64,000 bases of DNA from Terriglobia bacterium (GCA_965198225.1 CBDAOY010000007.1:862045-926044), one strand, 5' to 3'; positions 5,641 to 57,919 are shown, counted from the stretch's first letter. Notes: generated by a model not told the origin, from the sequence alone. Made by a program: numbers and translations.

Positions 5641-5662
5641 CAGGTCCCCGCTATTTCGCCAA

Positions 5663-30030: not shown

Positions 30031-30047
30031 GCCGTTGTTGCGGGGGA

Positions 30048-30226
30048 GCGTAGGCCGTTATCCGTAGGCCGTTGTTGTGGTACGGGTCCGCCAACGCGAA
30101 AGTAACCAATGGTGGGCGAACAACAACGTTCCCACAGTGGGGTTGTCGTTAGTAGCTGGTAGTCTCGCTTGATCTGACCCGTGCGGTCGTAGACCGCACC
30201 AACGGCCTGCGGATAACGGCCTACGC
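30048..30226. repeat. Inverted-repeat element, family D (27-bp terminal inverted repeat) with an embedded GTGCGGTC-GTA-GACCGCAC palindrome
   Basis: GCGTAGGCCGTTATCCGTAGGCCGTTG at 30048-30074 versus the reverse complement of CAACGGCCTGCGGATAACGGCCTACGC at 30200-30226 (1 mismatch). The palindrome GTGCGGTCGTAGACCGCAC at 30181-30199 belongs to the same family as the sites at 55312, 55338 and 57891. Confidence 0.55.
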
Positions 30227-30254
30227 CCCCCTGACCGCACAACATGACGAAACC

Positions 30255-31502
30255 ATGAGTAAGACGAGCGACAATCTGATCCTCCTCAAGAACGGGCTGC
30301 TCGTCGACGGCTCCGGGCCGGATCCTGTCGGCAAGGTCGACGTTCTTGTCGAGGGAAGTCGGATCAAAGAGGTGTCCGACAAGGCGATCAAGGCCAGGGG
30401 GGCGCAGAAACACGACCTCAAGGGTCGGACGTTGATGCCCGGCCTGATCGACTGTCACGCGCATCCCTGCCTGACGCAGATGAAACTGGCCAGCCTGGAG
30501 GACGTGCCGCTGACGCTGATGACCGCGCAGGCTTCCACGATCTTGCGAGGAATGCTCGACCGGGGTTTTACGAGTATCCGTGACGCGGCCGGCGGAGACT
30601 GGGGCCTGAAGGAAGCCGTCGAAAAGGGCCACATCGCCGGACCGCGAATGTTTATCTCGGGTCGGGCTTTGAGCCAGACGGGCGGTCACGGCGACTTTCG
30701 TCGCCGGACCGACGACTCCATCCCGTGCAGTTGTGGGAACGCCCTGCATTTCACGACCCGTGTCGCCGACGGGATCGATGAGGTCCGGCAGGCGGCGCGT
30801 GACGAACTGCGGAAGGGCGCCGATCAAATCAAGGTGATGGTCTCGGGGGGCGTCGTTTCTCCGAATGATCCACTCGAGGCATGTCAGTACTCGAGCGAGG
30901 AAATCCGGGCGATCGTGGACGAAGCCGAGGCTGCCGGAACCTACGTCCTGGCCCACGCTTACACCGCCGAGGCGATCACCCATGCCGTCAAGGCCGGCGT
31001 CCGCTCGCTCGAGCACGCGAACCTGATCGATGCCGAGGCCGCGCGCCTCGTCGCGGCCGAGGGAGCCTACGTCGTACCAACGCTCGTGACCTACGACGCG
31101 CTCGAACGCCTTGGCAAGGAGCTGGGCCTTACCGCGGCAATGCTGGAGAAGCTGGCACGTGTGCGGTCGTTCGGACTGGACTCGCTGGAAGTGTGCAAGA
31201 GAGCCGGGGTCCAGTTAGGTTTCGGTACAGATTTATTGGGCGAGACCCACGATGAACAATCCCGCGAGTTCCTGATCCGTTCCGAGGTGCAGCCCGCACA
31301 CGAGGTGATCGCGTCGGCGACGCGCATCAACGCAGAGATTCTGCAGAAGAAAGGAGAGCTTGGCGTCGTCGCCGCGGGAGCGACGGCGGACTTGCTGGTC
31401 GTCGACGGCAATCCCCTGAAAGATCTCAATCTGCTGCAGGACCAGGGAAAGCATCTGTGCGTCATCATGAAGGACGGGCGGATCCACAAGAACCTTCTGT
31501 GA
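30255..31502 (+). CDS. Amidohydrolase-family protein (metal-dependent hydrolase)
   Basis: LLKNGLLVDGSG..., metal-ligand motif LIDCHAHPC, and the VLAHAYTAEAI region. Confidence 0.8.
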   Translation: MSKTSDNLILLKNGLLVDGSGPDPVGKVDVLVEGSRIKEVSDKAIKARGAQKHDLKGRTLMPGLIDCHAHPCLTQMKLASLEDVPLTLMTAQASTILRGMLDRGFTSIRDAAGGDWGLKEAVEKGHIAGPRMFISGRALSQTGGHGDFRRRTDDSIPCSCGNALHFTTRVADGIDEVRQAARDELRKGADQIKVMVSGGVVSPNDPLEACQYSSEEIRAIVDEAEAAGTYVLAHAYTAEAITHAVKAGVRSLEHANLIDAEAARLVAAEGAYVVPTLVTYDALERLGKELGLTAAMLEKLARVRSFGLDSLEVCKRAGVQLGFGTDLLGETHDEQSREFLIRSEVQPAHEVIASATRINAEILQKKGELGVVAAGATADLLVVDGNPLKDLNLLQDQGKHLCVIMKDGRIHKNLL

Positions 31503-40027: not shown

Positions 40028-40297
40028 CTATCTATGTCCATCAGATTGGACCAATGAATCCGCCGGGCTCCGGACTCCGCCCGGGCCGCGGTTCAGCACG
40101 TGTGTGTAGACCATCGTTGTGCGAACGTCCTTGTGGCCGAGGAGGTCCTGGACGGTGCGGATGTCATATCCGTCCTCGAGCAGATGAGTCGCGAAGGAGT
40201 GTCTGAATGTGTGACAGGTGGCGGTTTCGCGATGCCGGACCGCGGGACGGCGCTGCGGACGGCCCTTTGGATTACCGACTCATGAAGGTGGTGGCGT
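40028..40297 (-). pseudogene. C-terminal remnant of an integron-integrase-like tyrosine recombinase (IntI/XerD type)
   Basis: The reverse-strand translation reads ..[24 protein letters not shown] / [53 protein letters not shown], carrying the catalytic RHxxxxxLLxxGxDIRTVQxLLGH...TxxYTH box. There is one internal frameshift. The N-terminal ~250 aa are absent and replaced by repeat U1. Confidence 0.7.
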
Positions 40298-40400
40298 GCG
40301 GATAAGCGGAATAAGCAGGGTCTGACGACTATGGTAGCACTGAGATTGTCGTCGCATGGGTGTTATGTCAACCCGCGCGCGGCGGCAGGCCGTCGCGCGG
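40298..40400 (+). repeat. U-repeat copy 1 (~104-bp two-hairpin element)
   Basis: GCGGATAAGCGGAATAAGCAGGGTCTGACGACTATGGTAGCACTGAGATTGTCGTCG.ATGGGTGTTATGTCAACCCGCGCGCGG..GTCGCGCGG. This is 1 of 4 near-identical copies, the others at 42473, 51741 and 51100(-). Confidence 0.8.
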
Positions 40401-40616
40401 CGCCACGCATGTCGGGCTACGGCGGCAACATCGTTCAGCTGATGCCGAATGGCATGATTGGATTTCGTTTTGGCAATGGCGGCTCTGTCCCGCTCGAGCG
40501 GATGACCGTTGTCGCGGACAAGATTCGTCCATTTGACGAATACCCCCGTCGCTGACAGCGCCCCTTTTGACTATGCTTTTATTAAACTATGCTAAATCGG
40601 TTGAGGATCAATCAAA

Positions 40617-41303
40617 ATGAGCGAAACGCGCTATCCGAACGAGAGCCCTGAATATCGCAAAGCCCGCGACGAACTGCTGGAAGCCGAGCAGGCACTGGTC
40701 GAACAAACCAGGGCCGTAGCCGAAAAACGCCGGCAACTTCCTCCTGGTGGAAAACTGAAGGAGGACTACGTATTCCAGTGGGCCAATGAAGGCAAGGTCG
40801 GGGAAGAAGTGCGCTTGTCCGAGCTGTTCGGCGACAAGAACACGCTTATTCTTTATAACTTCATGTACGGCCCGGCCTGGGACAAGCCCTGCATGTCTTG
40901 CACAACGTTGATGGATGGTTTTGATCGTACCGCCTACCCGGTGTCACAGGATGCGGCATTCGTCGGAATTGCGAAGGCGCCCGCAGACATGATCCATGAC
41001 TGGGCGTCGCATCGCGGCTGGACGAAAATCGGACTTGTGTCAGGCGCCAATACAACATACCAGGCCGACTACAACTGCCAGGGCGAGAACGACGACATGC
41101 AATGGCCGATCATGCACGTATTCCGGAAAGTCGACGGCGAGATCTACCACTTCTGGGGAACCGAATTACAGGGCAACCATGTCGATACCGTCTGGCCGTA
41201 CTGGAACATGATGGACTTCACGCCCGAGGGCCGCCCGGACTACATGGCGCCCCCGCAGGATTTCACGTCAGAATTCCTGCAGAAGCACTACCTGGACGAC
41301 TAG
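40617..41303 (+). CDS. DUF899 thioredoxin-like family protein
   Basis: 228 aa containing the motifs EDYVFQWANEGKVGEEVRLSELFGDKNTLILYNFMYGP..CMSC and WPIMHVFRK.DGEIYHFWGTEL. Confidence 0.65.
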   Translation: MSETRYPNESPEYRKARDELLEAEQALVEQTRAVAEKRRQLPPGGKLKEDYVFQWANEGKVGEEVRLSELFGDKNTLILYNFMYGPAWDKPCMSCTTLMDGFDRTAYPVSQDAAFVGIAKAPADMIHDWASHRGWTKIGLVSGANTTYQADYNCQGENDDMQWPIMHVFRKVDGEIYHFWGTELQGNHVDTVWPYWNMMDFTPEGRPDYMAPPQDFTSEFLQKHYLDD

Positions 41304-42355
41304 TCCGCGTCGAGTGGCGCGCAAGGTTCCAGGTCACTCATCGCAATGCCGCCGCGATTACCAATTGTGACGGTGCCATAGCGCTCGGCAAAGATGTCCG
41401 GCAGTGGCCGGTCATTGGGCATGGATAACCATAGCCGCAACAGGTGGCGACGGTCTTCTATTTCCGGCCAGTCTTCAAAACCGGTTCGATCGTGCAGCAA
41501 TCCGTGGTTGTAGACGAACTGCAGATCGCCCGGTTCCAGTTGCATGGACAAATTTAACCGAGTGTCGTTGGCCAGATTGTCGAATAAGTCGAGTGCGTCA
41601 ATGTGCTCGGGCGTCAGCTGCATGGCGTTCTCGAATCGTTGTGCCGAATCGATGTACTGGCGCTGGTACATCACCGTCAGGAAGTCGTGATCCCAGGTTA
41701 AGACCGGAATCGAAAAGAACGGCTGCATGCCGTCGGGAATTTCGCCGCGCCGGTCCGTCGCTATCGGGTCGAACAACAGTTTGGCGAGGTCCGGGCGAGT
41801 TTCCAACATTTCGTTGTAGATGGTGATTGCGCTCACCAGGAGCGAATCACCGCCCTTTTTTGCCTTCTTCAAACATAGCAGGCCGACCACGTCGCTGGAA
41901 TCGGTGTGAAAGGTCTGCCGTTCATTGGTCTGGTAAATCCGGACGTCCGGTGCGTCGCTATGCATGTCCAGGTCGCGTACGTGTCCAAGCACATGCCCCT
42001 TGGCGTTTTGCATGCGTGCGCTACCGAGATGTGCGCCAACGCCGTAAAACATGATGGCCGCCTGTTCGACTGTATATCTCTCGACCGGGAGTCGACGCAG
42101 CAATGCAAAGCCGATGCCTTCTACAAGCTGTTCAGCGAGTTCTTCCACCCTTGGTCCCAGTCCCGCGAGTGGAAAATTCTTCCTGTTAATTGAAACAATG
42201 GGAATAGCGAGCTTCGCGATGCTGCCTGCCGCCGCTTCAATCTCAGCGATCTCTGAATCTCTCAGATCAATGATCCACTGGTCCGTATCTGCCCTGAGAT
42301 CGGGCCCATACCAGGCCAGCGCACATTCCTGCCGTTCCGGTATTTGCATTGCCAT
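41300..42355 (-). CDS. TauD/TfdA-family Fe(II)/2-oxoglutarate-dependent dioxygenase
   Basis: HTDSSD (His-x-Asp facial triad) and overall TauD-like sequence. Start is taken at MAMQIPER, which is preceded by GGAAAG. Confidence 0.7.
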   Translation of the reverse strand: MAMQIPERQECALAWYGPDLRADTDQWIIDLRDSEIAEIEAAAGSIAKLAIPIVSINRKNFPLAGLGPRVEELAEQLVEGIGFALLRRLPVERYTVEQAAIMFYGVGAHLGSARMQNAKGHVLGHVRDLDMHSDAPDVRIYQTNERQTFHTDSSDVVGLLCLKKAKKGGDSLLVSAITIYNEMLETRPDLAKLLFDPIATDRRGEIPDGMQPFFSIPVLTWDHDFLTVMYQRQYIDSAQRFENAMQLTPEHIDALDLFDNLANDTRLNLSMQLEPGDLQFVYNHGLLHDRTGFEDWPEIEDRRHLLRLWLSMPNDRPLPDIFAERYGTVTIGNRGGIAMSDLEPCAPLDAD

Positions 42356-42472
42356 CTTTCCTGGTCGCGCTCCATGGTCGGAGAGGTGTTTCGCTCGTGA
42401 CAATTATCCCGTCATTGACGCACAATGCCAGCGAAGCAGTCATTGCGAAGTTGATTGGGCACCTAATTACGT

Positions 42473-42576
42473 TGCGGATAAGCGGAATAAGCAGGGTCTG
42501 ACGACTATGGTAGCACTGAGATTGTCGTCGTATGGGTGTTATGTCAACCCGCGCGCGGCCGCAGGCCGTCGCGCGG
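42473..42576 (+). repeat. U-repeat copy 2
   Basis: 104 bp, 2 mismatches to copy 1. Its 3' hairpin supplies the stop-proximal codons of the truncated PD40 ORF. Confidence 0.8.
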
Positions 42577-42976
42577 TTGCCCGTACAGGATCGTCCCGTC
42601 TGTCTCCCAACTGATACCGAAGTTGTTGCCACCAGGCTCGGTGAGCAATTTGGGCGCACCTCCCGTGACGGCGACCTTCATCAATCGTGGGCGTGCAGCG
42701 TTTGATACGAAGTCCATATAAACAATCTGCTGCCCATCGGGTGAGAAAACAGGGTCTACCAAACTAGCATCACCAATTCCCGGTATCATCTGGGCTTCGA
42801 GTCCATCCATAGCCCGGAGGTAGAACCCGCCCGTGCCTCGGTACACGAACTGTCGGCCATCGGGTGAAATCGCAACAACTTGCCGCCCAAGATTTGAAAA
42901 AGTAATCCCCTCCGGCAGCTCGTAGTCAAAGCGGCTGACGGAGACAGGTTCTACAGGCCTCAGAGTCCACCCGCCA
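42577..42976 (-). pseudogene. Internal fragment of a PD40/TolB-like beta-propeller repeat protein
   Basis: Contains SPDGRQFVY and FSPDGQQIVY PD40 repeats. It is bounded by U2 at its 3' end and by the IS6 terminal inverted repeat at its 5' end. Confidence 0.5.
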
Positions 42977-43772
42977 GGAATTGTCAACTTGGGCCCATAA
43001 CTGCCAGACTGGTTCTATGAAATCGACTCGACCCCTCTATCACGGCCACCGTTACCCACGCGAAATCATCAGTCATGCAGTCTGGCTGTATCACAGATTC
43101 GGCATCAGCTTCCGAGATGTGGAAGATCGCCTCGCCGAACGAGGTGTAGTTGTGTCCTACGAGACAATCCGCCAATGGTGCGCGAAGTTCGGTCTCGAAT
43201 ATGTCAGGCGTCTCAAACGACAACAAGGTCGACTCGGAGATACATGGTTCCTGGACGAAGTCTTCGTCACAATCAACGGTGAACGCCAATATCTTTGGCG
43301 CGCCGTGGATCAAGACGGTGACGTGATCGACATCCTCGTCCAGTCCCGACGCAATCGTCGTGCGGCGGAGCGCTTCTTTCGCAAACTCTTGAAGAATCAG
43401 GGAAAGGCGCCGTTCCGCCTCGTTACAGACAAGTTAAAGAGTTACGGCGCGGCGCTCCGGACGATCATGCCTTCGGTGAACCACGACACCGCACAATACG
43501 CGAACAATCGAGCAAAAGTCTCACACCAACCAACGCGACAGAGAGAACGACAAATGCGACGGTTCAAGTCTCCACGACAAGCCCAACTCTTCCTGTCGCT
43601 ACATGGCATAGTTCTGAATCTTTTCCGATTGTCCAGGCACAGACTGAAGGCGGTTCACCACCGTATGCTGCGAGCGCGTTCTTTTGCGACCTGGGAGGCG
43701 GTTACCGTGGGTTGATCGACCCGCGCCGATCCGGCACACGTTCGACCTTCGGACGGCAAGTTGACAGAACCC
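42977..43772 (+). mobile_element. IS6-family (IS26-like) insertion sequence
   Basis: About 800 bp with terminal inverted repeats GGAATTGTCAACTTGGG (42977-42993) and reverse complement of CGGCAAGTTGACAGAACC (43755-43772). Single transposase gene. Confidence 0.8.
43017..43715 (+). CDS. IS6-family transposase
   Basis: MKSTRPLYHGHRYPREIISHAVWLYHRFGISFRDVEDRLAERGVVVSYETIRQW.. matches the IS26/IS6 transposase family in length and motifs. Confidence 0.85.
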   Translation: MKSTRPLYHGHRYPREIISHAVWLYHRFGISFRDVEDRLAERGVVVSYETIRQWCAKFGLEYVRRLKRQQGRLGDTWFLDEVFVTINGERQYLWRAVDQDGDVIDILVQSRRNRRAAERFFRKLLKNQGKAPFRLVTDKLKSYGAALRTIMPSVNHDTAQYANNRAKVSHQPTRQRERQMRRFKSPRQAQLFLSLHGIVLNLFRLSRHRLKAVHHRMLRARSFATWEAVTVG

Positions 43773-43897
43773 TTCGTGGCTATCGGTGTCGCGTATCGCC
43801 CGCGCAATCCGGAAACGACAGTCCTTCTACACGAAGTCGCCGACGGTTGGAAGACATCGCCCAGATCGGCGCGCTGGAATACGCTGACGGCAGGGCG

Positions 43898-46165
43898 TCA
43901 GTCGCGGTGCACGAAGACAAACTCGCCGCCCTCGTCGCCGGCCTGGTAGATCACGCCGTACTGTGGCGTGTTGGGGCTGTTGTTGATCACCGCCTGCCGG
44001 AAATCGGCGAACAGTGCGTCGGCGGTGATGTAGCGGCTCGAGTTGTCGGTTAGCCGGTCGGTCAGGTATTGCAGGAAAACGCTCTGGTCCGGAACCTGGG
44101 TGAGCGTGCCGCTGGTCATGGCCTTGCGGCTCGACAGCCGGGCCAGCTCGGTGATCGCCCGGTCCGCGCCCGCGAACGCCGTGCGCGTCTTGAAGATACC
44201 GCCGCTGAAGCAGGCGTCAGAGATCAGCAGCGTGTGCTTACTGTTGATGCCTTTGATCAGGTCGCGGATGTCGCTGTTCGAGATCCATTGGGCGGGATTG
44301 TCCTGCGTGGCGTCGGCCGGCAGCCAGTAGCCCTGTCCGATCTGTTCGTTCCAGATGCCGTGGCCGGCGAAGAAGACGATCACGCTGTCCTTGTCCGTGA
44401 CCCTCAGGCCGAGCTGCTGAAGGCCACGGTAGATCTCGTCTTCGTCCGGATTCTCGAGCCGGGTGACGTTCTGGGCGTCGAAACGATAGCGCTGGACCAG
44501 TACGTTCTCGAGCCGCTGGGCGTCGGAGATGGGATGGTCCAGGTCGTTGACCGCGGGGTTCTCGTAGTCCTGCACAGCGATCAGGAGCGCGTGGTAGGTA
44601 CCTTCGGGCAGCTCGGCCAGCGCGGACTCGTCGGCCGGCTTGAGCCCCCGGTCGCCACCGGGAGTCGGGGCGTCGGGAGGCGGTGCGCCGCCGCTCTCGC
44701 GAACGACGATCAGACGCGCTTCTGCCCAGTTCTGGTGTCGCTGACGCGCACGCGGATCTGGTTCTCGCCGAAGGCCAGGTTCACCTCCCGCCAGAATTCG
44801 CCGCGCGCCGAGACGTTGGCATCCTCGCCGTTGATCAGCACCTCGTAGATGCCGCTCTCGTCCCTGACCGCTCCGGCGACCACGACCCTCTTGGACGGCA
44901 CGGTGATCCGATCGCCGCTTGAGCCTGGTCGGCTGAGCTCAATCTCCGGCGGCCTGACGTCGTTGGTTCTCACGACCACCTCGTCTTCACTCGGCGACGG
45001 GATCTCGGGTCGTGTGGGACGCGGCTCGGCCTCCTCCGGGCTCACCGACGCGACCAGCGTCCGGAGATCGACCGCCTGGACCTTCGAGAAGATGACGTTG
45101 GCCCGGCTGGAGGCGGGATAGCGCGTGTAGCCGCGACCGGACTCGTGGAACCGGAAGACCATGTGGGCAGTGGATCCGCCGCGCGCCAGCTCGCGGTTGG
45201 GGATCGTGTACTCCCACACCGGATGCGGCTTCGCCGAAATGGCGGTGGCTTTGAAGCCGACCGCCAGTGAGGCGCCCGAGGAGAACCCTCCGCACCCGGT
45301 GGAAGAGCCCTCGGTAAGAAGGTACTGGGTACAGATGCTGGTGTAGGTGCCGTTCCTCCTACCGTAGCCGACATCGGTCCTCGCGGCGTCGATGATGCCG
45401 TTCTGGTTGACGTCGACCCGAATGCTGGCGAAGTCGAGCGCGGGGAACTGCCCGCGCAGGTTGTCGGAGGTATCGCCCACCGCCTCCAGCACGAAGGTGG
45501 TCTTGTCGCCCTCGTACTTGGCGATGACAACGTGGCGCTCGTTCTTCTCCAGTACCCGCTCGCTCGCCGTTGTCGGCGGCGTCAGCGAGGCGATGATGAC
45601 CTTCGAGAAGATGACGTTGGCCCGGCTGGAGGCGGGATAGCGCGTGTAGCCGCGACCGGACTCGTGGAACCGGAAGACCATGTGGGCAGTGGATCCGCCG
45701 CGCGCCAGCTCGCGGTTGGGGATCGTGTACTCCCACACCGGATGCGGCTTCGCCGAAATGGCGGTGGCTTTGAAGCCGACCGCCAGTGAGGCGCCCGAGG
45801 AGAACCCTCCGCACCCGGTGGAAGAGCCCTCGGTAAGAAGTACTGGGTACAGATGCTGGTGTAGGTGCCGTTCCTCCTACCGTAGCCGACATCGGTCGGC
45901 GTCGATGATGCCGTTCTGGTTGACGAACCCGAATGCTGGCGAAGTCGAGCGCGGGGAACTGCCCGCGCAGGTTGTCGGAGGTATCGCCCACCGCCTCCAG
46001 CACGAAGGTGGTCTTGTCGCCCTCGTACCTGGCGATGACAACGTGGCGCTCGTTCTTCTCCAGTACCCGCTCGCTCGCCGCCTGTACGCCGGGCGTTGCG
46101 AACAGAGCCAGGATCGCGGTCGCCAAGAGAAGCCGAGTCGCATTGGCGAGAGTCGAACTCATCAA
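43898..46165 (-). pseudogene. Secreted caspase-family (peptidase C14) protein with a tandemly duplicated N-terminal domain; reading frame interrupted in the first repeat
   Basis: Signal peptide MMSSTLANATRLLLATAILALFATPGVQA. Two copies of a ~170-aa module (ERVLEKNERHVVIAKYEGDKTTFVLEAVGDTSD..GGSTAHMVFRFHESGRGYTRYPASSRANVIFSKV) follow. The C-terminal caspase domain has His (FFAGHG) and Cys (LLISDACFSGG). ORFs 45359-46165, 44710-45738 and 43898-44575 are pieces of this one gene. Confidence 0.65.
45081..46085. repeat. Tandem duplication (2 x ~519 bp) inside the caspase-family gene
   Basis: Over 250 bp are identical between 45081-45330 and 45600-45850. The upstream copy (closest to the signal-peptide end of the gene) has 1-, 7- and 2-nt deletions that break the frame. 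Confidence 0.8.
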
Positions 46166-46451
46166 CAGGCGCGCCGCGCCTGCCTCGCAGGTTCGTATCG
46201 CCGGCCTTTCCCCTACATGCTAGTGCACCGCCGATGGCAAGGGCAAGGTAGCCGCCATCGACGCCTTGCGCGAGGCGACCATGCCCTCCATCGGCACCAG
46301 GATCCGCCGGTGGGCGGCCGCCAACGCGTCCTCGGTCAGTCCGTCTTCTCCGGTCCGAGCAGCACCGCGGTCGGCTGAGTGGAGTTCGACCGCCTCGTCG
46401 GACAGGTGCTGCCAGCAACGGCGGAACCGGATAATGGGCAGTCGAACCGTG

Positions 46452-47450
46452 CTACTCCCACACATCAAAATTCCCCGCCCAGATCGCATCGATGCGGCCT
46501 GTGCGCCAGCCCGCCACCTTGTCGCGTACCAGCGACGAGGGCAACTCCCGGTAGCGGCGGACGATCGCGGGCGCTTGGTTCTCGGATGCATTCAGCAGTT
46601 CGCGCGCGGTGCGAATCTGGTCTTTACGCCGTGGGCTCGGTGGTTCCGGCTGAGGAGCCACCACGACGCGCGCGCGCACACGGTCGAAACGCGATTCGTC
46701 GATCGGCGATTCCATGACGTGCAGGCCCGATTCACGGGAGAGGATGGCGTAGCTGCCGAAGCCGCCGAGCGAGAAGATTACGCCGTCGGGGCGCTCCCCT
46801 CCCCCGACTGGTAGCTCCGTCAACCGCATGCGGCGGCGCCTGGCCCACTGCCGGTACATGTCCACGGTGTGTGCCAGGAACTCCCGGGCCTGGGGATGAT
46901 CCATGTCCTCGCGCAGCAAGCGAACGCCGAGGAACGCCTGGGTGGGACGCTCGCTGTCCAGGTCCTCGATCCCCTCGTCCAACACGTAGAGCTTCTCCGC
47001 TATCCGCGCGGTGGGTGACGGGCTGTGACCGTTCTGCCGTCGGCGCTCCGCGAGGGAGTTGAGCGCTGCTGCTGCGGACTCGATACGATCCATGAGCTCG
47101 ATCCGATGCAGCACCAGAAAACGGTCCTCCCGGTTCCAGAACCCGTCGCCGTTGATCTCCTTAAGGCCCTCTTCCTTTGCTGCACGCCAGGGCTCGTCGT
47201 CCAAACGCATGACGATATCTTTCACCCGCGATGTGAGAAACGCCTGCTCGTTCGCCGCGCCGGTGGCGTGCAGCATTAGGTGCGTAACCGAGAGCGATGC
47301 CGCAGATGCCTCTGCACCCGCAATCTCCGGAGGCGGTTCCGCTTCGGCGTCGGGATCGATGAACTCCACACGCAGGGTGTTCCCATCGCTGCGCACGAAC
47401 AGGAACTGCTCACCCTCCGGCGCGCGGTTCTCGACGATCGTGATCGACAA
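46452..47450 (-). CDS. Peptide-chain-release-factor-2-like protein lacking the GGQ catalytic segment
   Basis: 332 aa. HTVDMYRQWARRRRMRLTEL..GVIFSLGGFGSYAILSRESGLHVMESPIDESRFDRVRARVVVAP aligns to the RF PCRF domain (MYxRWAE..[33 protein letters not shown].P), with an SPI in the SPF position. The C-terminus RRYRELPSSLVRDKVAGWRTGRIDAIWAGNFD matches the RSYNFPQGRVTDHR..LD..L.G.LD tail. The ~45-aa GGQ-bearing region between them is absent. Confidence 0.6.
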   Translation of the reverse strand: MSITIVENRAPEGEQFLFVRSDGNTLRVEFIDPDAEAEPPPEIAGAEASAASLSVTHLMLHATGAANEQAFLTSRVKDIVMRLDDEPWRAAKEEGLKEINGDGFWNREDRFLVLHRIELMDRIESAAAALNSLAERRRQNGHSPSPTARIAEKLYVLDEGIEDLDSERPTQAFLGVRLLREDMDHPQAREFLAHTVDMYRQWARRRRMRLTELPVGGGERPDGVIFSLGGFGSYAILSRESGLHVMESPIDESRFDRVRARVVVAPQPEPPSPRRKDQIRTARELLNASENQAPAIVRRYRELPSSLVRDKVAGWRTGRIDAIWAGNFDVWE

Positions 47451-47479
47451 AGGCGCAAGGAGGCAACGAGAGCTGTGCT

Positions 47480-48290
47480 TGACGATCTGAAGCGTAGATC
47501 GAACACTTTTGAGCGGTGAGAATGCGCTAACAGTGGAAACAAGTGCGACTCCATTGCTTGTTGCCCGATGTACATTACTGGTGCTTTATCTTTCCGAAGA
47601 CGAGAAGCAAGGGGTTATAGTATCCCACGCTTGGGCACATCCAGGTTGTTCCGGACGTAGCGTTGGTCCAAAACGCTCAGGCCGTTCGTAGCCAGGGGCG
47701 ATCTTCCATCCGTGACGTTGTTAAGGTGATCGGGACAAGCAACTTCAGTTTCCTTAGCCAAGACGGACACTGAGGGACTCAGTAGCGAGTTCAATCTCGC
47801 GTGCGGCAGTCGAGCCCTTCCAGAGCCGTTGCTCTCGCAGTACGCGCTTGGTCACTCGAGGGTTCACGGACCAAACTATAGCGGCTACCTGTGGGTCACG
47901 GCCGATAAGGTATTCGAGTTAGGAAGGGCGAGGTGACGTGAGCTCTCGGGCTTGCTGATTACTTGGCCAGTGGCATGAGGCGATCATTGACCATCAGACC
48001 TGAGAAGCCGTGCCGCCACGGCCAGCACGCCAAAGAATTGAGTTCGCGGGCCCGACATTTTTAACAGAGCAACTCCGAGTTGGTTGCGTATTCCGGCGAA
48101 ATCCGCCAGTGATTCCGAAGTGAAAGCCGCCACGATTCCGGGCAAAGCATCCACCCGTCGGAGCGAAGCGACGCTGGGGAGGGTTATCATTTCCGAAGTG
48201 GATGGCTTCGGTCAAACAAGAACCGCGTTTGTGGTGTAATTTTCATCTAACAATTCCTCCTCGAATGTGAATGAATCGCCGGGCCTGTGT
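47480..48290. other. Non-coding ~0.8-kb spacer with lower GC between the RF-like gene and IS21 copy 1
   Basis: Only short, low-complexity ORFs in all six frames. Contains short hairpins (for example CCGAAGCCATCCACTTCGG). I did not recognise tmRNA, RNase P or CRISPR features. Confidence 0.3.
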
Positions 48291-48481
48291 GTAAGTGTGA
48301 ATGGGCTGCGGGTTGTGCGGCCCATTCAAGCCGGTGTGGGAATCCGCGCGTTGTGTAGCGGATTTCCATAGCTGCGGCACTTTCCACAGGCCGATGCCTC
48401 TGTGCTGTTCGCAAGGCAGAAAGTTCCGACCGCGGCGCGGCCTGGGGTCGGAATCTCTGCGGAGCGGTGGTCCACTGAAGG

Positions 48482-49252
48482 CTATCCCTCATTCGGATCA
48501 GGCTCCTTTCTAGCCCGGCTCGGGCCGTTTTTGGACTTTCGCATCGAAGCCCCATCCAGTTCGATGCGATGCGCATTGTGGACCAAGCGGTCGAGGATGC
48601 TATCGGCCAGTGTGGGATCCCCGATCTGATCGTGCCAGTCGGTGATGGGCAACTGACTGGTGAGGATCGTGGATCGGGTGGCGTAACGGTCGTCGCAGAT
48701 TTCCAGGAAGTCGCGGCGTTCGGTGTCGGCGAGCGGCGCGATGGCCCAATCATCGACAAGGAGAACGTCGATTCGGGCAATGCGGTCCAGCAGTTTGACA
48801 AAGCTGCCGTCCGCACGGGCCACGGCTAGGTCGCGCAGCAATCGCGGCGCGCGGGTGTAGAGTGCGGTGAAGCCGTCGCGAACGGCTTTGTGGCCCAGCG
48901 CGCAGCCGAGAAAGCTTTTTCCGACGCCACAGGGTCCGGTGATGATCACGTTCTGATGCTGGGTAACCCAGTCACAGGCGGCCAGGCTGCGGATCAACCC
49001 GCGGTCCAGGCGGCGCGGATGCCGGTAGTCGATGTCTTCGACGGCGGCGTTGATTTTAAACCGGGCGGTCTTCAAGCGACGGGCGAGCGCCCGGTTTGCC
49101 TTCCAATCCCATTGCCGATCCACCAGCAAGGCCAGACGTTGCTCGAAACTGAGCCGGAGGATTTCGGGGTCTTCCATCTGCTGGCCCACCGCCTCGGCCA
49201 TGCCCGTGAGTCGCATCGCATGGAGTTTTTCCAGTGTGGGTTGCATTAGCAT
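48482..49252 (-). CDS. istB: IS21-family helper IstB (AAA+ ATPase)
   Basis: 256 aa starting MLMQPTLEKL, with Walker A GPCGVGKS and Walker B LLVDDW. The start overlaps the istA stop. The 650-aa ORF in the track is a frame run-on through istA. Confidence 0.85.
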   Translation of the reverse strand: MLMQPTLEKLHAMRLTGMAEAVGQQMEDPEILRLSFEQRLALLVDRQWDWKANRALARRLKTARFKINAAVEDIDYRHPRRLDRGLIRSLAACDWVTQHQNVIITGPCGVGKSFLGCALGHKAVRDGFTALYTRAPRLLRDLAVARADGSFVKLLDRIARIDVLLVDDWAIAPLADTERRDFLEICDDRYATRSTILTSQLPITDWHDQIGDPTLADSILDRLVHNAHRIELDGASMRKSKNGPSRARKEPDPNEG

Positions 49253-50808
49253 GACGGTCCCTCCGGAGTCTTGAAGTAATCGGTTCCACGGATATTGGGG
49301 TGTTGAATGGGCGGCCGGACCGGACCGGGTTCCGGCTCGGCCTGCCGATCCAGACCGGTGCCGAGGATCGACCGGACGCTTTGATAGGAGCAGGCATCGA
49401 GTCGGCAGGCGCGGGCCGCGGCGGCTTCCAGCCGATCCGGCCCATAGCTTTGACCCAGACGAAGGATGCCCAAACAGCTGCGGAAGCCTTGTTCGGGATG
49501 GCGGCGCGATTGAAGCACGCGCGCCACCAGTTGGGAGGTGAACGGACCGGTGCTCGATGCCCAGCGGATGAGCCGTTCCGGTGTCCATTCCAGGTAGCGT
49601 TGATGCGCGGCGGGCCGATGCGCATCGACGGTGGTGTGCGCCCCCGCCTTCGAGCTGCGCGGGTGACTGGCTACACGCTGGCCCCGATGAAAGATCTCCA
49701 CGGTCAGGGCCGTGTAGCGCACGTCCAACTGCTGATGCACCAGGGCGTAGGGAGCGCTGTAATAGTGGCCCTCGACCTCGATGTGGTAATCGATGTGGAC
49801 GCGCGCTTTCTTCCATTCGGCGAACGCGTAGCGGTCGGCTGGCAAGCGGCCCAGCGCCGGCCGGTCGAGCGTCTCGAACCGGGTGCGGCGGCTGCCCTCG
49901 AGCTTGCGAAATCTGCGGGCATTGAGCCGGTCCAACAGTTCCGCGATCGCGGCGTTCAGATCGGCCAGGTTGAAGAACGTGCGTTTGCGCAGGACGGCCA
50001 GGATCCACCGTTCCACCAAAAGCACACCCGCCTCGGCCTTCGCCTTGTCCCGGGGTTTGCGCACGCGCGCCGGAATGACAGCGACGCCGTAATGAGCCGC
50101 CATCTCCTGATAGGTCGGATTCAGGTCCGGTTCGTACCGGCAGGGACGGCTGACCGCGCTCTTCAAGTTGTCGGGGACAACGATCTCGGGCACGCCCCCA
50201 AAAAACTCCAATGCACGGATGTGAGAGCCAATCCAACAGGGCAGCTTCTGGCTCCAGGTCGCTTCGGCGAACGTGTAATTGCTGGCGCCCAGGACCGCAA
50301 CGAAGATGGACGCGTCCTGAATGGCTCCCGTCTTCGAATCGACGATCGGGACGGTGTCTCCCGCATAGTCGACGAACAGTTTTTCTCCGGCGCGGTGTTC
50401 TTGCCGCAGAACCCGATCGAGCTTCCGGGCCCATTGCCGGTAGAGTTCACAGAACCGACTGTAGGAATAACCGTCCGGGTTCGACTGCCGGTACTCCTGC
50501 CAGAGCAACTGCAACGTGACATGCTTGTCGCCCCGGAACTCTTCGTGGATCGTCGCCCAATTCGGCGCCGGGCGGTCCGGAGTCAGCGTCACCCGCGGTG
50601 GGAACAGCTGCGTCTCCAATCCCGATTCATCCAGTCCTTCGGGCAACGGCCATCCGAGCCCCGCCACCTCGGCCCGGCGGACATAATCGGCGACTGTGCT
50701 GTGGTTGATCGAACAACTGCGGGCGATCTGGCGGTGACCTAACCCCAGCCCGAACTTGAGTCGTAGAACTTCTTTGATCTTTCGCATGGACAATCTCTCT
50801 GCAGGCAC
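49246..50808 (-). CDS. istA: IS21-family transposase IstA
   Basis: 520 aa with an N-terminal HTH (MPAERLSMRKIKEVLRLKFGLGLGHRQIARSCSIN) and an IS21 DDE core. Confidence 0.85.
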   Translation of the reverse strand: MPAERLSMRKIKEVLRLKFGLGLGHRQIARSCSINHSTVADYVRRAEVAGLGWPLPEGLDESGLETQLFPPRVTLTPDRPAPNWATIHEEFRGDKHVTLQLLWQEYRQSNPDGYSYSRFCELYRQWARKLDRVLRQEHRAGEKLFVDYAGDTVPIVDSKTGAIQDASIFVAVLGASNYTFAEATWSQKLPCWIGSHIRALEFFGGVPEIVVPDNLKSAVSRPCRYEPDLNPTYQEMAAHYGVAVIPARVRKPRDKAKAEAGVLLVERWILAVLRKRTFFNLADLNAAIAELLDRLNARRFRKLEGSRRTRFETLDRPALGRLPADRYAFAEWKKARVHIDYHIEVEGHYYSAPYALVHQQLDVRYTALTVEIFHRGQRVASHPRSSKAGAHTTVDAHRPAAHQRYLEWTPERLIRWASSTGPFTSQLVARVLQSRRHPEQGFRSCLGILRLGQSYGPDRLEAAAARACRLDACSYQSVRSILGTGLDRQAEPEPGPVRPPIQHPNIRGTDYFKTPEGPSC

Positions 50809-51099
50809 GTGTTCTCCCTCCTTGACTAAAAGGGAAAACAGTACCCGCGGGTTGTCCAGCGTCGCTATCGGCCTCTTCGATTCCGGAGCATCTCATCCAC
50901 CATTCCGACCGGCACCCCAAAACTGGATGGCTTCGGGTCGGAATCCCTGGATGCTTTCCCTCGGAATCGCTGGATGACTTCGATCGGAATCAGTGGGGGC
51001 TTTCGATCGGAATCCCTGGATGACTTGCTCTGGAATACGCAGTTGGCCGCGAACCTCCGCGTACTGTAGTTGAACCGCGAAGGACCTTGTCTGAATTCC

Positions 51100-51201
51100 C
51101 CGCGCGACAGCCTGCGGCCGCGCGCGGGTCGACATAACGCCCATACGACGACAATTCAGCCCTACCATAGTCGTCAGACCCTGCTTGTGCCGCTTATCCG
51201 C
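51100..51201 (-). repeat. U-repeat copy 4 (inverted orientation, most diverged), abutting the IS21 copy-1 end
   Basis: Its reverse complement reads GCGGATAAGCGGCACAAGCAGGGTCTGACGACTATGGTAGGGCTGAATTGTCGTCGTATGGGCGTTATGTCGACCCGCGCGCGGCCGCAGGCTGTCGCGCGG. Confidence 0.75.
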
Positions 51202-51567
51202 AGGTGAGCGCCCTGGACATCGTGACGTGGGCCGGAGCATGTGCCACTCTTCTCGCCGCCTCTATCGCGGCGGGATACTTACCTGGGAACGCGCTGCTCG
51301 GACCGACCCGAAGGCGGCACTCAGAGCCGAGTAGCCCCGGCCCTAGCGCCAACGTGCAGGTCCGTCAGGCGATAGGTCCTGCCTTGTCGCCTCGCGTTTA
51401 GGGATGGTCAAGCAGTGCACGGCTATTTGGCCAAGTGAGTTTAGTTGCTCCGTAACATTGACCCGGGTTCCCAAGCTGACGACGAAGCCTTCAGGCGTTC
51501 GCAAATCCTGTGGCTCTCACGGAGGACTTGCTGTTTGTGTTGCGGTAACGCACTCGGGACACTGGGC

Positions 51568-51740
51568 CGGGCGGGTTTCAGCCCGTCCTCTGCTCGAAGG
51601 CCCTCATGAATTCGACCAGCGTGTCGACGCCTTCTTCGGGTAGCGCGTTGTAGATCGAAGCACGCATTCCTCCGACCGAGCGGTGACCTTGAGGCCGTCG
51701 AGGTCGAGGCCCTCCGCGCTCCCTTGCTGCACGAACATGA
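51568..51740 (-). pseudogene. serC: C-terminal remnant of phosphoserine aminotransferase
   Basis: The reverse-strand translation ends ..[36 protein letters not shown], a near-canonical SerC C-terminus. An internal frameshift precedes it. The 5' side is cut off precisely at U-repeat copy 3. Confidence 0.6.
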
Positions 51741-51823
51741 GCGGATAAGCGGAATAAGCAGGGTCTGACGACTATGGTAGCACTGAGATTGTCGTCGTAT
51801 GGGTGTTATGTCAACCCGCGCGG
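51741..51823 (+). repeat. U-repeat copy 3 (3'-truncated, lacks the terminal GC hairpin)
   Basis: The first 83 bp are identical to copy 2. The element ends at CCCGCGCGG. Confidence 0.8.
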
Positions 51824-51919
51824 GGATTCAAGGCAGGATGTTCCGGGCAGGCGGCAGATTCAAGGCAGTTTTCCGTCTTGCGGAGACACACCCGTCCCGC
51901 GGCGTCGTGACGTCGACGT

Positions 51920-52126
51920 TCAGAAGGCGTCCATCTGGCAGTTGTAGTCGGAAGAGGCCGGCGCCAGAGGCGGGGCGCGGGAAGGCAGGCCCAGGCACTC
52001 CAGGATTCTTACTGTGACCGTGGGCGGACGAATTGCTGCAAGGATTTTCATCCTTCCGCCGCAATGTTCACACTGAAGAACGTCCACCAGGAAGACACGT
52101 TTCATCAACTCCGCCCAGGTGTAATT
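51920..52126 (-). pseudogene. C-terminal remnant of an IS91-family (rolling-circle, Y2) transposase
   Basis: ..NYTWAELMKRVFLVDVLQCEHCGGRMKILAAI..RILECLGLPSRAPP resembles the conserved IS91/ISCR transposase tail (zinc-ribbon CxxC..GLP). Confidence 0.45.
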
Positions 52127-52345
52127 GCGATTGCGCGCAGATGATTCCGCGCAGGGCTCAGCCGCAACAGTCAGCTCGGCTGATTGTTGGGCAGTAGGCT
52201 GCGGTTTCACCTCGGTCTCCCTGCGATTGTTATCCTCGGCGGTCACCCAAAACCGGCCAATGGTGGTCACCTGAAAACCGGCCAACGAACATAGATAAGC
52301 CCGGGACATTGACACCGACGGGAAGCCGAAACAGGCTCCGTCGGC

Positions 52346-53986
52346 ATGAGCAATGTCTTGAGCACAGAAAAGAGAGAGCAAGTTGTTGCATTGGGGCGGC
52401 TTGGATGGCCGCTGCGTCGGATCGAACAGACCACCGGCGTGCGTCGTGAGACGGCCAGTGCGTATCTGAGAGCGGCCGGAATCCCCATTCGGCCGCCCGG
52501 GAGTTGGGGCCGGCGACCGGCAAAACCGGCCAACGAGGTGACCACCGACCCGGACGGCGTAAATGGTGTCGTTGAGGGGTTTGGCGGTTCCGATACTTCA
52601 AAACCGGCCAACGAAGTGACCACCGACCCGGAGGCCGAGAATCCGGTCTCGGCAGAGTCGTCGGCTCCCCCTCCAAGCCCACCGTCGGGCAGTTCCTGCG
52701 AGCCGTACCGGGAGACCATCCAACAGGCGCTGGAGCGTGGCCGCAACGCGATGGCGATCTGGCAGGACCTGGTCACGGATCACGGTTTTGTCGGCAGCTA
52801 CGAATCGGTCAAGCGTTTCGTTCGCAAACTCCGGGGAGTGCGATCCCCGGAAGCGGTCGGAATCATCCAGACCGGAGCTGGAGAGGAAGCGCAGGTCGAC
52901 TACGGGACCGGACCGATGGTCCGGGATCCGAAGACGGGCAAGTACCGACGGACGCGGCTGTTCGTGATGACGTTGGGCTACAGCCGCAAATCGGTCCGGC
53001 TGCTGACGTTCAAGTCCAGTTCCCGCATCTGGGCCCAGTTGCACGAGACCGCGTTCCGCCGACTCGGCGGCACTCCCCGCCTCATCGTGCTGGATAACCT
53101 GCGCGAAGGCGTGATCGTCCCGGACCATTACGACCCCACCCTGAATCCGTTGTTTCGAGATGTCCTGACCCATTACGGCGTGGTGGCCATGCCATGCCGG
53201 GTGCGCGATCCAGACCGCAAAGGCAAAGTCGAATCCGGTGTCGGGCACGCCCAGAAGACCCCATTGAAGGGACAGCGCTTCGAGAGCCTCGACCAGGCCC
53301 AGGGGTATCTGGATCGCTGGGAAGTCCGATGGGCCGACACCCGCATCCACGGCACGACCAAGCGGCAGGTGGCGGCCATGTTCGCCGAAGAGAAACCATC
53401 TCTTAAGCCGCTGCCGATCGAACCGTTTCGCTATTACCAATTCGGTGAACGTGTCGTCCATCTCGACGGTTGCGTCGAAGTCGAAGCCGCCTATTACAGT
53501 GTACCGCCGGGCTGGATCGGACGGGGTGTCAAGGTCCAGTGGGACACGCTTCACGTCCGGATCCTGGACCCAAACACCTATCCACTCCTCCGCGAGCATG
53601 TCCGCCAGAAGCGGGGTGGATACCGTGTCCGTGCTGAAGACAACCCGAAGAAAACCCCGTTAACGACGGTGCAACTGCTGGCCCGAGCCCGCCGCGCTGG
53701 CACCCACATCGGCACACTCTGTGACGCCATTCACCGCCGACAAGGGGAAGCTGCGGTCCGCCGCATCCTGGGTGTGCTCTCCCTGGCCAAGAAGTACGGT
53801 GTCTCCGCCGTGGAGGATGCTTCGGCTGCGGCACTGGAACTCCACGTCTACGAGTATCGTTTCGTCCGCCGCTATCTGGAGCGGCGACCTCCACTCGCCC
53901 TGCGTCAGGTCGATCCTCTCATTCGCGAACTGACTCAGTATCGCGATCTCATCAACCTCAAAATCCAGGAGCAGGAACACTCATGA
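52346..53986 (+). CDS. istA: IS21-family transposase IstA (copy 2)
   Basis: 546 aa with an N-terminal HTH and DDE core. The ends of the C-terminal region overlap istB by 4 nt. Confidence 0.85.
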   Translation: MSNVLSTEKREQVVALGRLGWPLRRIEQTTGVRRETASAYLRAAGIPIRPPGSWGRRPAKPANEVTTDPDGVNGVVEGFGGSDTSKPANEVTTDPEAENPVSAESSAPPPSPPSGSSCEPYRETIQQALERGRNAMAIWQDLVTDHGFVGSYESVKRFVRKLRGVRSPEAVGIIQTGAGEEAQVDYGTGPMVRDPKTGKYRRTRLFVMTLGYSRKSVRLLTFKSSSRIWAQLHETAFRRLGGTPRLIVLDNLREGVIVPDHYDPTLNPLFRDVLTHYGVVAMPCRVRDPDRKGKVESGVGHAQKTPLKGQRFESLDQAQGYLDRWEVRWADTRIHGTTKRQVAAMFAEEKPSLKPLPIEPFRYYQFGERVVHLDGCVEVEAAYYSVPPGWIGRGVKVQWDTLHVRILDPNTYPLLREHVRQKRGGYRVRAEDNPKKTPLTTVQLLARARRAGTHIGTLCDAIHRRQGEAAVRRILGVLSLAKKYGVSAVEDASAAALELHVYEYRFVRRYLERRPPLALRQVDPLIRELTQYRDLINLKIQEQEHS

Positions 53987-54738
53987 ATCTGATCGAACTC
54001 CAGCGGGCTCTCCGACAACTCCGGCTCGGCGGCATTGCCGAGGTGTTGGAAACACGCCTCCACCAGGCCCAGACCGAAGCCATGGCGCCGATCGACTTGG
54101 TCTCTCGTCTGGTCTCGGATGAACTGGACCGTCGCAGCATCCGGTTGTTGGAACGGCGTCGGAAACAGGCCCGGTTCCGCGATCCCCAGAAGACGCTCGA
54201 CTCCTTCGACTTTACTTTCAACAAGAAGATGAATCGTAGTCTGGTCTTCGACCTGGCGACGGGCGCCTTCATCTCCAGGCACGACGATGCCTTGTTTCTC
54301 GGTCCTCCTGGCACCGGCAAGAGTCATCTGGCTCAGGCCATCGGCTTGGCTGCGATTGAGCAGGGCTATCGGGTCGTCTACCGTGAAACTCATGCGCTTC
54401 TCGACGACATCGCCGAAGCCACCATTGACGGTACCCGAAAGGAGTGCATGGAAGCTTTGGCGACGGTCCCGCTGCTGATCATCGACGATCTGGGGATGCG
54501 GAAGCTTCCTCCCACTGCAGCAGAGGAACTCCTCGAGATCGTGATGCGACGCTATGAACGGACCAGTACGTTACTGACATCGAATCGACCCGTCCAAGAC
54601 TGGGGAAAACTACTGGGTGATAGCGCCGCCGTCACAGCCATGCTGGACCGGCTGCTCCATCACGGCCACATCCTCAAATGCGGCCCTCGGAGTTGGAGGA
54701 CTAAAACGGGCTTGCCGAGTCCAGTCCCAAAGAGGTAG
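53983..54738 (+). CDS. istB: IS21-family helper IstB (copy 2)
   Basis: 251 aa with Walker A GPPGTGKS and Walker B LLIIDDLG. Confidence 0.85.
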   Translation: MNLIELQRALRQLRLGGIAEVLETRLHQAQTEAMAPIDLVSRLVSDELDRRSIRLLERRRKQARFRDPQKTLDSFDFTFNKKMNRSLVFDLATGAFISRHDDALFLGPPGTGKSHLAQAIGLAAIEQGYRVVYRETHALLDDIAEATIDGTRKECMEALATVPLLIIDDLGMRKLPPTAAEELLEIVMRRYERTSTLLTSNRPVQDWGKLLGDSAAVTAMLDRLLHHGHILKCGPRSWRTKTGLPSPVPKR

Positions 54739-54787
54739 AACAACACCGTCCCGGGCCATCCCCGTTGGCCGGTTTTGAAGTGACCAC

Positions 54788-55125
54788 TGAGGTACGTTGC
54801 CCAGTGGATGGAATTCCGGCCGGTTGTTGGCCGTGACCGTAAGTTTGGGCGGCATCTTGCCGTACCGGAGGGGAAGCCATGCGGGTGTCTGGCATTCGAT
54901 CCGGTAGGTAACGGGAGAAGTCACACGCAGTCGGCAGTCCTGCATGCGCATGATCGATTGGACGCGGGCATAGTGTAGTTCGGAGCGGATCTGATACGCA
55001 GCGGACTGCAAAAGCCAGTGCTGCCGGGCTTCAACGAGTGAGGGGACGGCGATCATGGTGAGGGAACTGATGATCGCAACGACAACGCAGGCTTCCAGAA
55101 GGCTGGTGCCTCGGGATGAAGACAT
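54788..55125 (-). pseudogene. Type IV pilin / T2SS pseudopilin-like gene (GspH/FimT-like), 3'-truncated by IS21 copy 2
   Basis: The N-terminus ..RGTSLLEACVVVAIISSLTMIAVPSL carries the prepilin cleavage/methylation motif (G|TSLLE, Glu at +5). The ORF-track protein continues for 59 aa that are encoded by the IS21 right end (54610-54787), so the native 3' end is lost. Confidence 0.6.
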
Positions 55126-55311
55126 AAACCCTTCCTGTGTGTTCTAGAAAGGGCACCTTCAATGTTAGTAGTTAGCGCAATTGTCCGATACAGAAATCTG
55201 TCTGCGAGAGAACCAACGTGAGGGGGACAGGGGTATAGCCCTGTCCCCCGGTGGTTGGTAAGCAATAAAATTCGGAGACGCTGGCTGTCGAGTTGGTGCG
55301 GACGAAGAATG

Positions 55312-55354
55312 TGCGGTCATAGACCGCCCGAAGAATGTGCGGTCATAGACCGCA
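55312..55354. promoter_or_regulatory. Two tandem copies of a 17-bp palindrome TGCGGTC-ATA-GACCGCA(C) upstream of the sensor kinase gene
   Basis: Sites at 55312-55328 (GACCGCC variant) and 55338-55354 (perfect), each preceded by GAAGAATG. They lie in the divergent region between the pilin-like gene and the CHASE2 kinase. Confidence 0.5.
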
Positions 55355-55494
55355 CCTACACCTTGTTTCCTGCGATGGTAGAGGCCTTTTGATAGAATAT
55401 AGGCGTTCTTTCCGCGTCTTCTGCGCCTGCGCGGGAAACACCCTTTCCTGTGTTTTCTGTGTCTAGCTGTCTGAAAGCGGACTGACGGGAGCCC

Positions 55495-57882: not shown

Positions 57883-57890
57883 GAGGGATG

Positions 57891-57907
57891 TGCGGTCATA
57901 GACCGCA
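57891..57907. promoter_or_regulatory. Third copy of palindrome TGCGGTCATAGACCGCA, between the kinase and regulator genes
   Basis: GGGATGTGCGGTCATAGACCGCACCTACACC is identical over 28 bp to the site at 55334-55361. Confidence 0.5.
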
Positions 57908-57919
57908 CCTACACCTGGT

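Follow-up and report, generated by a model that had tools for sequence, protein, structure and literature searches.

Insertion sequences (ISs) of the IS91 family carry their termination end, terIS, upstream of the transposase gene tnpA and their origin end, oriIS, downstream of it; the oriIS of IS91 and IS801, which needs no more than the last 82 bp to function, contains two imperfect subterminal palindromes, and termination fails in 1-10% of events, whereupon adjacent DNA is mobilised (PMC13181058). In ISCR1 the transposase gene is followed by a 232-bp region that contains oriIS (PMC6218425), and right-end miniatures of IS801 of 229, 360 and 679 nt were shown to transpose, starting at the origin end and stopping at an internal site (Bardaji et al. 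2011; PMC3189936). Here a ~104-bp repeat, termed U, is described from a 64,000-nt stretch of DNA from a Terriglobia bacterium (GCA_965198225.1 CBDAOY010000007.1:862045-926044), hereafter the window, over the whole of which positions are counted. Sequence comparison suggests, with a probability that we put at about 85%, that U is the oriIS-type end, i.e. the initiation end, of an uncharacterised ISCR-like IS of the IS91 superfamily, ~2.1-2.25 kb long, in Terriglobia (Acidobacteriota).

Repeat finding and MAFFT alignment located U (also delimited as the terminal ~103 bp) four times in the window, in three direct copies and one inverted copy:

40298-40400 (start 40297/8), plus strand: U copy 1 (c1), a detached putative oriIS module, with the head GCGGATAAGCGG at 40298 and a GC-hairpin tail that ends at 40400.
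42474-42576 (start 42473/4), plus strand: U copy 2 (c2), a complete putative oriIS module, detached in the window, its tail joined to a PD40 remnant.
51741-51823, plus strand: U copy 3 (c3), a putative oriIS module still joined to its own IS.
51100-51201, minus strand: U copy 4 (c4), a more diverged putative oriIS module whose tail abuts IS21-family copy 1.

These positions and strands agree with a preliminary description of the window and are also reflected in the invariant 19-mer GGTCTGACGACTATGGTAG, which occurs four times as against 0.01 expected from shuffled sequences. The identity of 95-100% that was given there for all four copies holds for c1-c3 (mutually 98-100%; 98% for c1/c2 and 100% over 82 nt for c2/c3) but not for c4, which is 90-92% identical to the other three window copies. 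The c4 copy stands head-to-head with c3 across 539 bp, and c3 is cut at its tail after CCCGCGCGG, ~20 nt of the GC hairpin being deleted between repeated CGCGCGG arms. From its tip inwards, U comprises two tandem ATAAGC motifs, then an imperfect palindrome and a strong GC hairpin. The internal stem (GACGACnAT...ATnGTCGTC) and GC-rich terminal hairpin that had been noted earlier were both predicted on both strands when U was folded as single-stranded DNA, the latter with 12 bp, a GCA loop and a bulged T; the folds contain two separate local hairpins, leave the head unpaired and have no end-to-end pairing. A two-palindrome model over 18 copies gave 87% of cells paired, compared with 30-57% in slid controls. 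No sigma-70-like outward promoter was found inside U, and no tRNA or tmRNA genes that might have served as an integration site were found in the window.

The assignment of U to an IS is based on its linkage to a transposase gene. The preliminary description had proposed a search for a cognate transposase elsewhere, and an IS91-superfamily, ISCR-like gene was indeed found, in the linked loci, at a constant distance of ~97 bp from U. Locus L009 has a Y2_Tnp gene and, ~98 bp past it, ...CCTGCCTTGAATCC joined to the U tail; c3 is arranged in the same way, and its adjoining features are:

51824-51919, minus strand: spacer of ~97 bp between the transposase stop codon and U, containing CTGCCTTGAATC twice and conserved in L009, L011, L012, L013, L015 and L016.
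51920-52232, minus strand: 3' remnant of the ISCR-like transposase gene, ~104 codons plus stop, cut by IS21-family copy 2.

Together, c3, the spacer and this remnant align to L009 and L013 at 83-87% (83% for L009) through the junction; the remnant corresponds to positions 429-484 of the NCBIfam model ISCR_clade_Ia and is 87% identical to L013 DNA over 415 bp. The c3 copy terminates an IS of this kind, in which an IS21 insertion has interrupted the transposase gene. Reverse-complemented U begins ~97 bp past the transposase stop codon in L009, L011, L012, L013/L014, L015 and L016. The flanks of these six linked loci are unrelated and their transposases are 77-100% identical to one another; similarity between the loci continues through U to ...CCGCTTATCCGC and ends at the U head, with different DNA beyond. 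Since U moves with the transposase gene at constant distance and orientation and has different DNA beyond its head, it is regarded as the terminal segment of the transposase element, and the linkage in six loci and at c3 bears out the earlier proposal that U is no passive intergenic repeat but a transposition end. The same ...GCTTAT...TATCCGC terminus is present in relatives at 58-63% amino-acid identity (L019/L020 and L021), and L019 and L020 contain the same IS and diverge immediately past this terminus.

The element thus consists of a left end, the transposase gene, the ~97-bp spacer and U in reverse orientation, with a total length of 2.1-2.25 kb. On the transposase-sense strand its right end reads ...CTTATCCGC-3' followed by flank, or in the wider form ...GCTTAT(N5)CTTATCCGC, and its left end starts after the flank with TAGCAGG... 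in L009, L011 and L013 and with TCAGGG... in L015. The element lacks terminal inverted repeats, the only likeness between its ends being a short AGCAGG-type match 15 nt inward from the right end, and no target duplication was seen in the flanks of four full copies, apart from 6 nt in L011 that may be a coincidence. A CAGG motif, tentatively placed at the left border, was rejected for its misfit with the tail borders, and no conserved termination motif was found beside the tails. The left end was observed in a long form, with ~205 nt before the common core CGGCGTTACACGCGG (L013:4181-4385; L015:4192-4395), and in short forms (L009:3542-3572; L011:4559-4593) that share the first 7-18 nt, TAGCAGG...; these point to either internal deletions or variable termination points.

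The relatives P0007-P0125 of the transposase carry the domains Zn_Tnp_IS91 (PF14319) and Y2_Tnp (PF04986). The best NCBIfam model for the L011 protein is ISCR_clade_Ia (E 1e-121, positions 35-485 of 509), at a score of 407 bits that is far below the strict cutoff of 925, and the match to the transpos_IS91 equivalog is weaker (E 1e-23, 84 bits versus a cutoff of 125); by tblastn, annotated ISCR1/ISVsa3 transposases on plasmids match the protein over 95% of its length at 43% identity. The IS91 transposase has two tyrosines (YxxxY); as read by eye, the L011 protein has the putative motifs NANVHFHSMVIDG (HUH) and RLMRYAARP, the latter with one tyrosine. Because U lies downstream of the transposase gene, it is assigned as oriIS and not as terIS; of the IS91-type terIS that was among the earlier candidates, the IS91 type therefore stands and the end is the opposite one. 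Because no conserved CTTG/GTTC-like tetranucleotide abuts the head, the element is filed as ISCR-like within the superfamily and not with the IS91 group. Taken together, U and the 97-bp spacer form the predicted oriIS-containing region of an ISCR-like element.

The remaining features around the window copies are as follows:

40028-40296, minus strand: C-terminal remnant of an integron integrase, 89 codons, frameshifted, best NCBIfam match TIGR02249, ending exactly at the c1 head.
40403-40555, plus strand: last ~50 codons of an open frame that starts at the c1 tail, with no family match; a putative truncated gene only.
42544-42987, minus strand: PD40-repeat open reading frame (ORF) without its 3' end, which runs into the c2 tail and has its stop inside c2.
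43771-43825, plus strand: orphan fragment of 55 bp from the 5' part of the ISCR-like transposase gene, FVAIGVAYRPRNPETTV, bounded by a breakpoint at either side and with 100% identity to L016 8201-8255.
48034-51099, minus strand: IS21-family copy 1 (istA 49246-50808, istB 48482-49300), with approximate ends and no target duplication.
51578-51738, minus strand: serC C-terminal remnant, ~53 codons, frameshifted, ending at the c3 head.
52233-54793, plus strand: IS21-family copy 2 (istA 52346-53986, istB 53983-54738), inserted in the ISCR-like transposase gene.

Most of the junctions that had been noted earlier proved accurate: the IntI-like remnant, then put at ~90 codons, is of the integron type and meets the c1 head exactly, and c2 supplies the stop-proximal end of the PD40 gene. 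The serC junction at the c3 head also stands, with a remnant of ~53 rather than ~45 codons. The reported contact of c4 with the right terminus of IS21 copy 1 holds in that the c4 tail adjoins the window-right end of this IS, whose exact tip is uncertain within ~24 bp, so that there may be direct contact or a diverged spacer of 8-24 nt. Neither IS21-family copy has a target duplication. With its two IS21s, the ISCR-like remnant, the orphan piece and the frameshifted gene fragments, the window at ~39-55 kb can be called a mobile-element graveyard.

Scanning for exact 20-mers located U in three Terriglobia metagenome-assembled genomes and one metagenome contig, while two word matches in viral contigs were rejected as chance 19-mers; the similarity of those loci to the window is restricted to U alone (~103 bp, 85-92% identity), and their flanks are unrelated. 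More copies were obtained by a protein database search with concatenated open frames that run through U, followed by retrieval of the encoding contigs, and a profile search raised the number to 17 and then to 21 non-redundant copies. Seven of the 21 are IS-linked, eleven are detached with a complete tail (including L002, which has no head, and c4, whose border is ambiguous as its tail abuts IS21) and three are head-only partials, detached copies thus outnumbering the IS-linked ones. Neither a plasmid collection nor a comparison with the corresponding region of an enterobacterial ISCR revealed DNA similarity to U and its spacer. Detached copies are situated 6 bp after an intact peptidase gene in L004, 30 bp from an intact NifU gene in L008 and in non-coding DNA in L003. 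Because U adjoins intact genes or non-coding DNA elsewhere, its association with truncated genes is local to the IS-riddled window and not intrinsic to the element; the earlier statement that U always marks a gene truncation is correct for the window and fails as a general rule.

Other insertions and copies were noted close to U heads. An IS110-family (RNA-guided) element lies inside the U head at L011:6660-8209, with both head halves retained around the insertion, and at L007:8537-10003 an intact U head has another, different transposase gene of the IS110 family ~430 bp away; IS110 elements may be targeting this repeated IS end. In three of six IS-linked cases a second, inverted U stands head-to-head 245-822 bp past the IS terminus, with a gene fragment in between (window 51100-51823, serC'; L009:5534-6545, an outer-membrane beta-barrel fragment; L011:8222-8535).

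Rearrangements at the U borders are also evident between strains. The sibling contig L016, 99.85% identical to the window, independently confirms c1 with both flanks and c2 with its head flank. From the c2 tail, L016 leads directly into the spacer, the transposase remnant and IS21 copy 2, and its hairpin is full. Compared with L016, the window has an extra 9,164 bp (42577-51740) and one more U copy, both endpoints lying exactly on U borders; the difference reflects either recombination between the direct repeats c2 and c3 or integration of U with its cargo at an existing U head. L001 and L007 (97-98% identical) likewise share a block that starts exactly at a U head. The right flank of IS21 copy 2 also differs: it is a prepilin/GspH-like gene in the window (54794-55125, minus strand), and in L016, where the copy spans 3150-5728, it is an IS4-like element, beyond which the ISCR-like transposase gene resumes; this indicates further strain-level rearrangements at IS21 ends.

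With respect to the origin of the detached copies, ten of them, representing at least six genomes, have unambiguous tails, and all ten stop at the 3' foot of the GC hairpin to within 1 nt; the three partial copies stop at other positions. The relative in L021 (58% identical) has its own ~100-nt detached copy with the inner border at the homologous position, at an end without a strong GC hairpin. Detached copies are 93-100% identical to the resident IS-linked copy of the same genome, as compared with 82-92% between genomes. The occurrence of multiple copies with different flanks, the presumed miniatures and the structural polymorphism at U borders are indirect signs of rolling-circle or one-ended transposition. 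Given borders that are sharp to 1 nt and the precedent of IS801, which yields transposed right-end miniatures, we lean slightly towards the view that detached U copies are miniatures made by the transposase. Transposition would start at the U head, with cleavage predicted immediately 5' of GCGGATAAG on the U-forward strand, and would stop, by cleavage or termination, where the inner GC hairpin has its 3' foot, after ...GTCGCGCGG, giving miniatures of ~100 nt. Such detached copies would provide portable homology and possible initiation sites, and deletions, insertions and gene-fragment junctions would then accumulate exactly at U borders. Truncated genes at U heads could be insertion targets, and those at U tails could be DNA carried by read-through or products of recombination between copies.

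It is also conceivable, at clearly less than even odds, that each detached copy is the scar of a full IS whose remainder was lost through deletion, IS21, IS4 and IS110 insertions and homologous recombination between copies, the fragile GC hairpin acting as a preferred breakpoint and the identity of U being unchanged. Wherever the flanks of a detached copy could be interpreted, its two sides proved to be of unrelated DNA, and the surroundings are crowded with gene fragments and other ISs; in addition, the c3 hairpin is partly deleted between repeated arms, and recombination between the direct repeats c2 and c3 can account for the difference between the window and L016. Random deletion, however, would not lead ten independent copies, found in six or more genomes, to agree in their inner border to within 1 nt, nor does it fit the analogous ~100-nt module in a relative whose end lacks a strong GC hairpin, and the three partials that do look like scars end elsewhere. 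The reading of the detached copies as miniatures could be extended further, although we regard the extension as doubtful: the ~103-nt U would be a self-sufficient rolling-circle mini-transposon that starts from an origin in its head, uses the hairpin foot as a substitute terminator and is mobilised by the ISCR-like transposase acting in trans. Failed termination would drag adjacent DNA along, and U with its cargo would join the nick site of an existing U head, stacking into head-to-tail arrays, of which the window would offer an example in the order intI', U with 2.1 kb, U with 9.2 kb and U with the IS.

Several observations weigh against the oriIS assignment or against the miniatures. Covariation in the hairpins (7 and 18 copies) did not exceed that in shuffles, just one compensatory pair being seen, and L007a and L013 have a disrupted first stem. 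Across 19 independent head flanks neither a target tetranucleotide beside the U head nor a T at position 2 is conserved, and the tail border (CCGC/TCGC) is unlike the start of the left end (TAGC/CAGG). The divergence of U correlates weakly and not significantly with that of the transposase end (rho 0.35, p 0.12). No detached copy has both flanks from one gene, attempts to restore a split gene by removing U in silico produced nothing convincing, and empty-site alleles were not encountered. Since every locus comes from a metagenome assembly, the pairing of flanks across a 104-bp repeat may occasionally be mis-assembled, and the junctions of c2 with PD40' and of serC' with c3 are seen in the window assembly only. 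In the literature, transposition has not been demonstrated experimentally for any ISCR (PMC6218425; PMC13393415), and most genomic fragments of IS801 were judged to be reorganisations and not transposed miniatures, the same conclusion as that of the scar explanation (PMC3189936).

Other identities for U are much less probable. Were U an independent repeat or recombination hotspot beside which IS91-family, IS21 and IS110 elements preferentially insert, the contact of IS21 copy 1 with the c4 tail, the IS110-family elements in and beside U heads and the excess of detached over IS-linked copies would find an explanation; this is nonetheless improbable, as all six full or truncated IS copies have U at the same nucleotide distance and in the same orientation with different DNA beyond the head, the terminal motif is kept in relatives at 58-63% identity, and U has diverged to the same degree as the adjacent transposase 3' end, notwithstanding the weak correlation given above. 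It is still less credible that U is an IS200/IS605-type end or miniature (a palindrome-associated transposable element, PATE, as had been suggested earlier) or a structured small RNA such as a transposon guide-RNA scaffold. Its subterminal hairpins, the absence of target duplication and a long-range helix with some G-U-compatible changes in RNAalifold would suit such an element, but no Y1 TnpA, TnpB or IscB gene was found nearby in any of ~20 loci, the flanks are variable without a conserved target tetra- or pentanucleotide, and end-to-end pairing is absent. Rfam gave no match for the whole window at the gathering threshold nor for U alone at E<=10, covariation in the long-range helix was no better than in shuffles, and the linkage to a Y2/ISCR transposase fully explains the element. 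The homogeneous attC-like site of a decayed chromosomal integron, another of the earlier candidates, can be practically dismissed, for despite the integron-type integrase remnant beside c1 and the same orientation of c1 and c2, 2.2 kb apart, a regular-expression search found no RYYYAAC or GTTRRRY cores on either strand of U, the two local hairpins do not amount to a site-wide imperfect palindrome, the interval between c1 and c2 contains an intact convergent gene pair and not cassettes, and in other genomes U belongs to an IS without any integron in the neighbourhood. A further reason to reject both the IS200/IS605 and the attC candidates is that all full copies recovered have U physically linked to a transposase gene of the Y2/ISCR type.

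Some further observations were made in the window and in related loci. At L019:4512-5627 a 303-aa integrase (Phage_int_SAM_4 and Phage_integrase) is adjoined at its 3' end by the origin end of the 63%-identical ISCR-like element; this and the integrase remnant at U in the window may be an echo of the association of ISCR1 with integrons, or may be due to chance. Two copies of an element resembling a miniature inverted-repeat transposable element are present at 9385-9660 (276 bp) and 20650-20806 (157 bp), with a shared part that is 97% identical and terminal inverted repeats of ~34 bp, CCTGTAACAGTGCTATCGGTACCATCG. A hairpin repeat of the repetitive extragenic palindromic type, GTGCGGTC-ATA-GACCGCAC, occurs with conserved flanks at 55304-55366 and 57883-57919, where it brackets a 795-aa ORF (55495-57882), and in a weaker form at 30174-30210. 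An inverted repeat with 39-nt arms, 90% complementary and 111 nt apart, lies at 30043-30231 between ORFs at 28471-30030 and 30255-31502. Near-perfect tandem duplications in coding-looking DNA were seen at 17824-18579 (period ~390-410 bp) and at 45079-46080 (~519 bp), the latter in a segment of high third-position GC (0.88-0.93, 43898-45738) next to a caspase-domain gene.

If U is an oriIS-type end, a junction-associated repeat is explained as the end of a previously unannotated ISCR-like IS of Acidobacteria, and its known borders allow such ISs and their ~100-nt detached ends to be annotated in Terriglobia and rearrangement hotspots to be flagged. ISCRs are blamed for the movement of resistance genes and none has been shown to transpose; a clade with many discrete origin-end miniatures, borders defined to 1 nt and polymorphism between strains would offer defined substrates for cleavage and mobilisation assays. 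Apart from this value for annotation and assays, the element is an ordinary member of a known family. Should the doubtful mini-transposon extension prove true, the arrays would constitute natural evidence, at nucleotide resolution, for gene capture by an ISCR, which has never been shown experimentally.

Among the described systems, ISCR1 and ISCR2/ISVsa3 have the closest transposase, and with them the new element shares a single gene followed by a non-coding oriIS-containing region of ~200 bp; as in ISCRs, the ends are distinct, without inverted repeats, and gene fragments occur nearby, here with an adjoining integron-integrase remnant as well. It differs in its origin from another phylum (Terriglobia), in the lack of DNA similarity in the oriIS region and in a left end that is recognisable in several copies, whereas ISCR1 is without a terIS. 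To our knowledge, discrete detached oriIS copies of ~100 nt have not been described for ISCRs. A hairpin at one border is also known from Helitrons, rolling-circle elements of the HUH type that have a GC-rich subterminal hairpin and carry gene fragments; the likeness is one of analogy without sequence kinship, as the Helitron hairpin marks the 3' or termination end and that of U would mark the inner border of an initiation-end module. With the oriIS of IS91, IS801 and IS1294, U has in common its position downstream of tnpA, the two imperfect subterminal palindromes within the last ~100 bp, the absence of target duplication and an association with one-ended events (PMC13181058), and it is distinguished from them by the lack of a CTTG/GTTC-type tetranucleotide next to the end and by the weak match to the IS91 equivalog. 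Like the IS801 miniatures, detached U copies are continuous fragments that keep the right (origin) end, stop internally and occur alongside full copies; they are shorter (~103 nt), their stop is at the foot of a hairpin and not at a left-end-like tetranucleotide, and their transposition is presumed, where that of the IS801 miniatures was shown.

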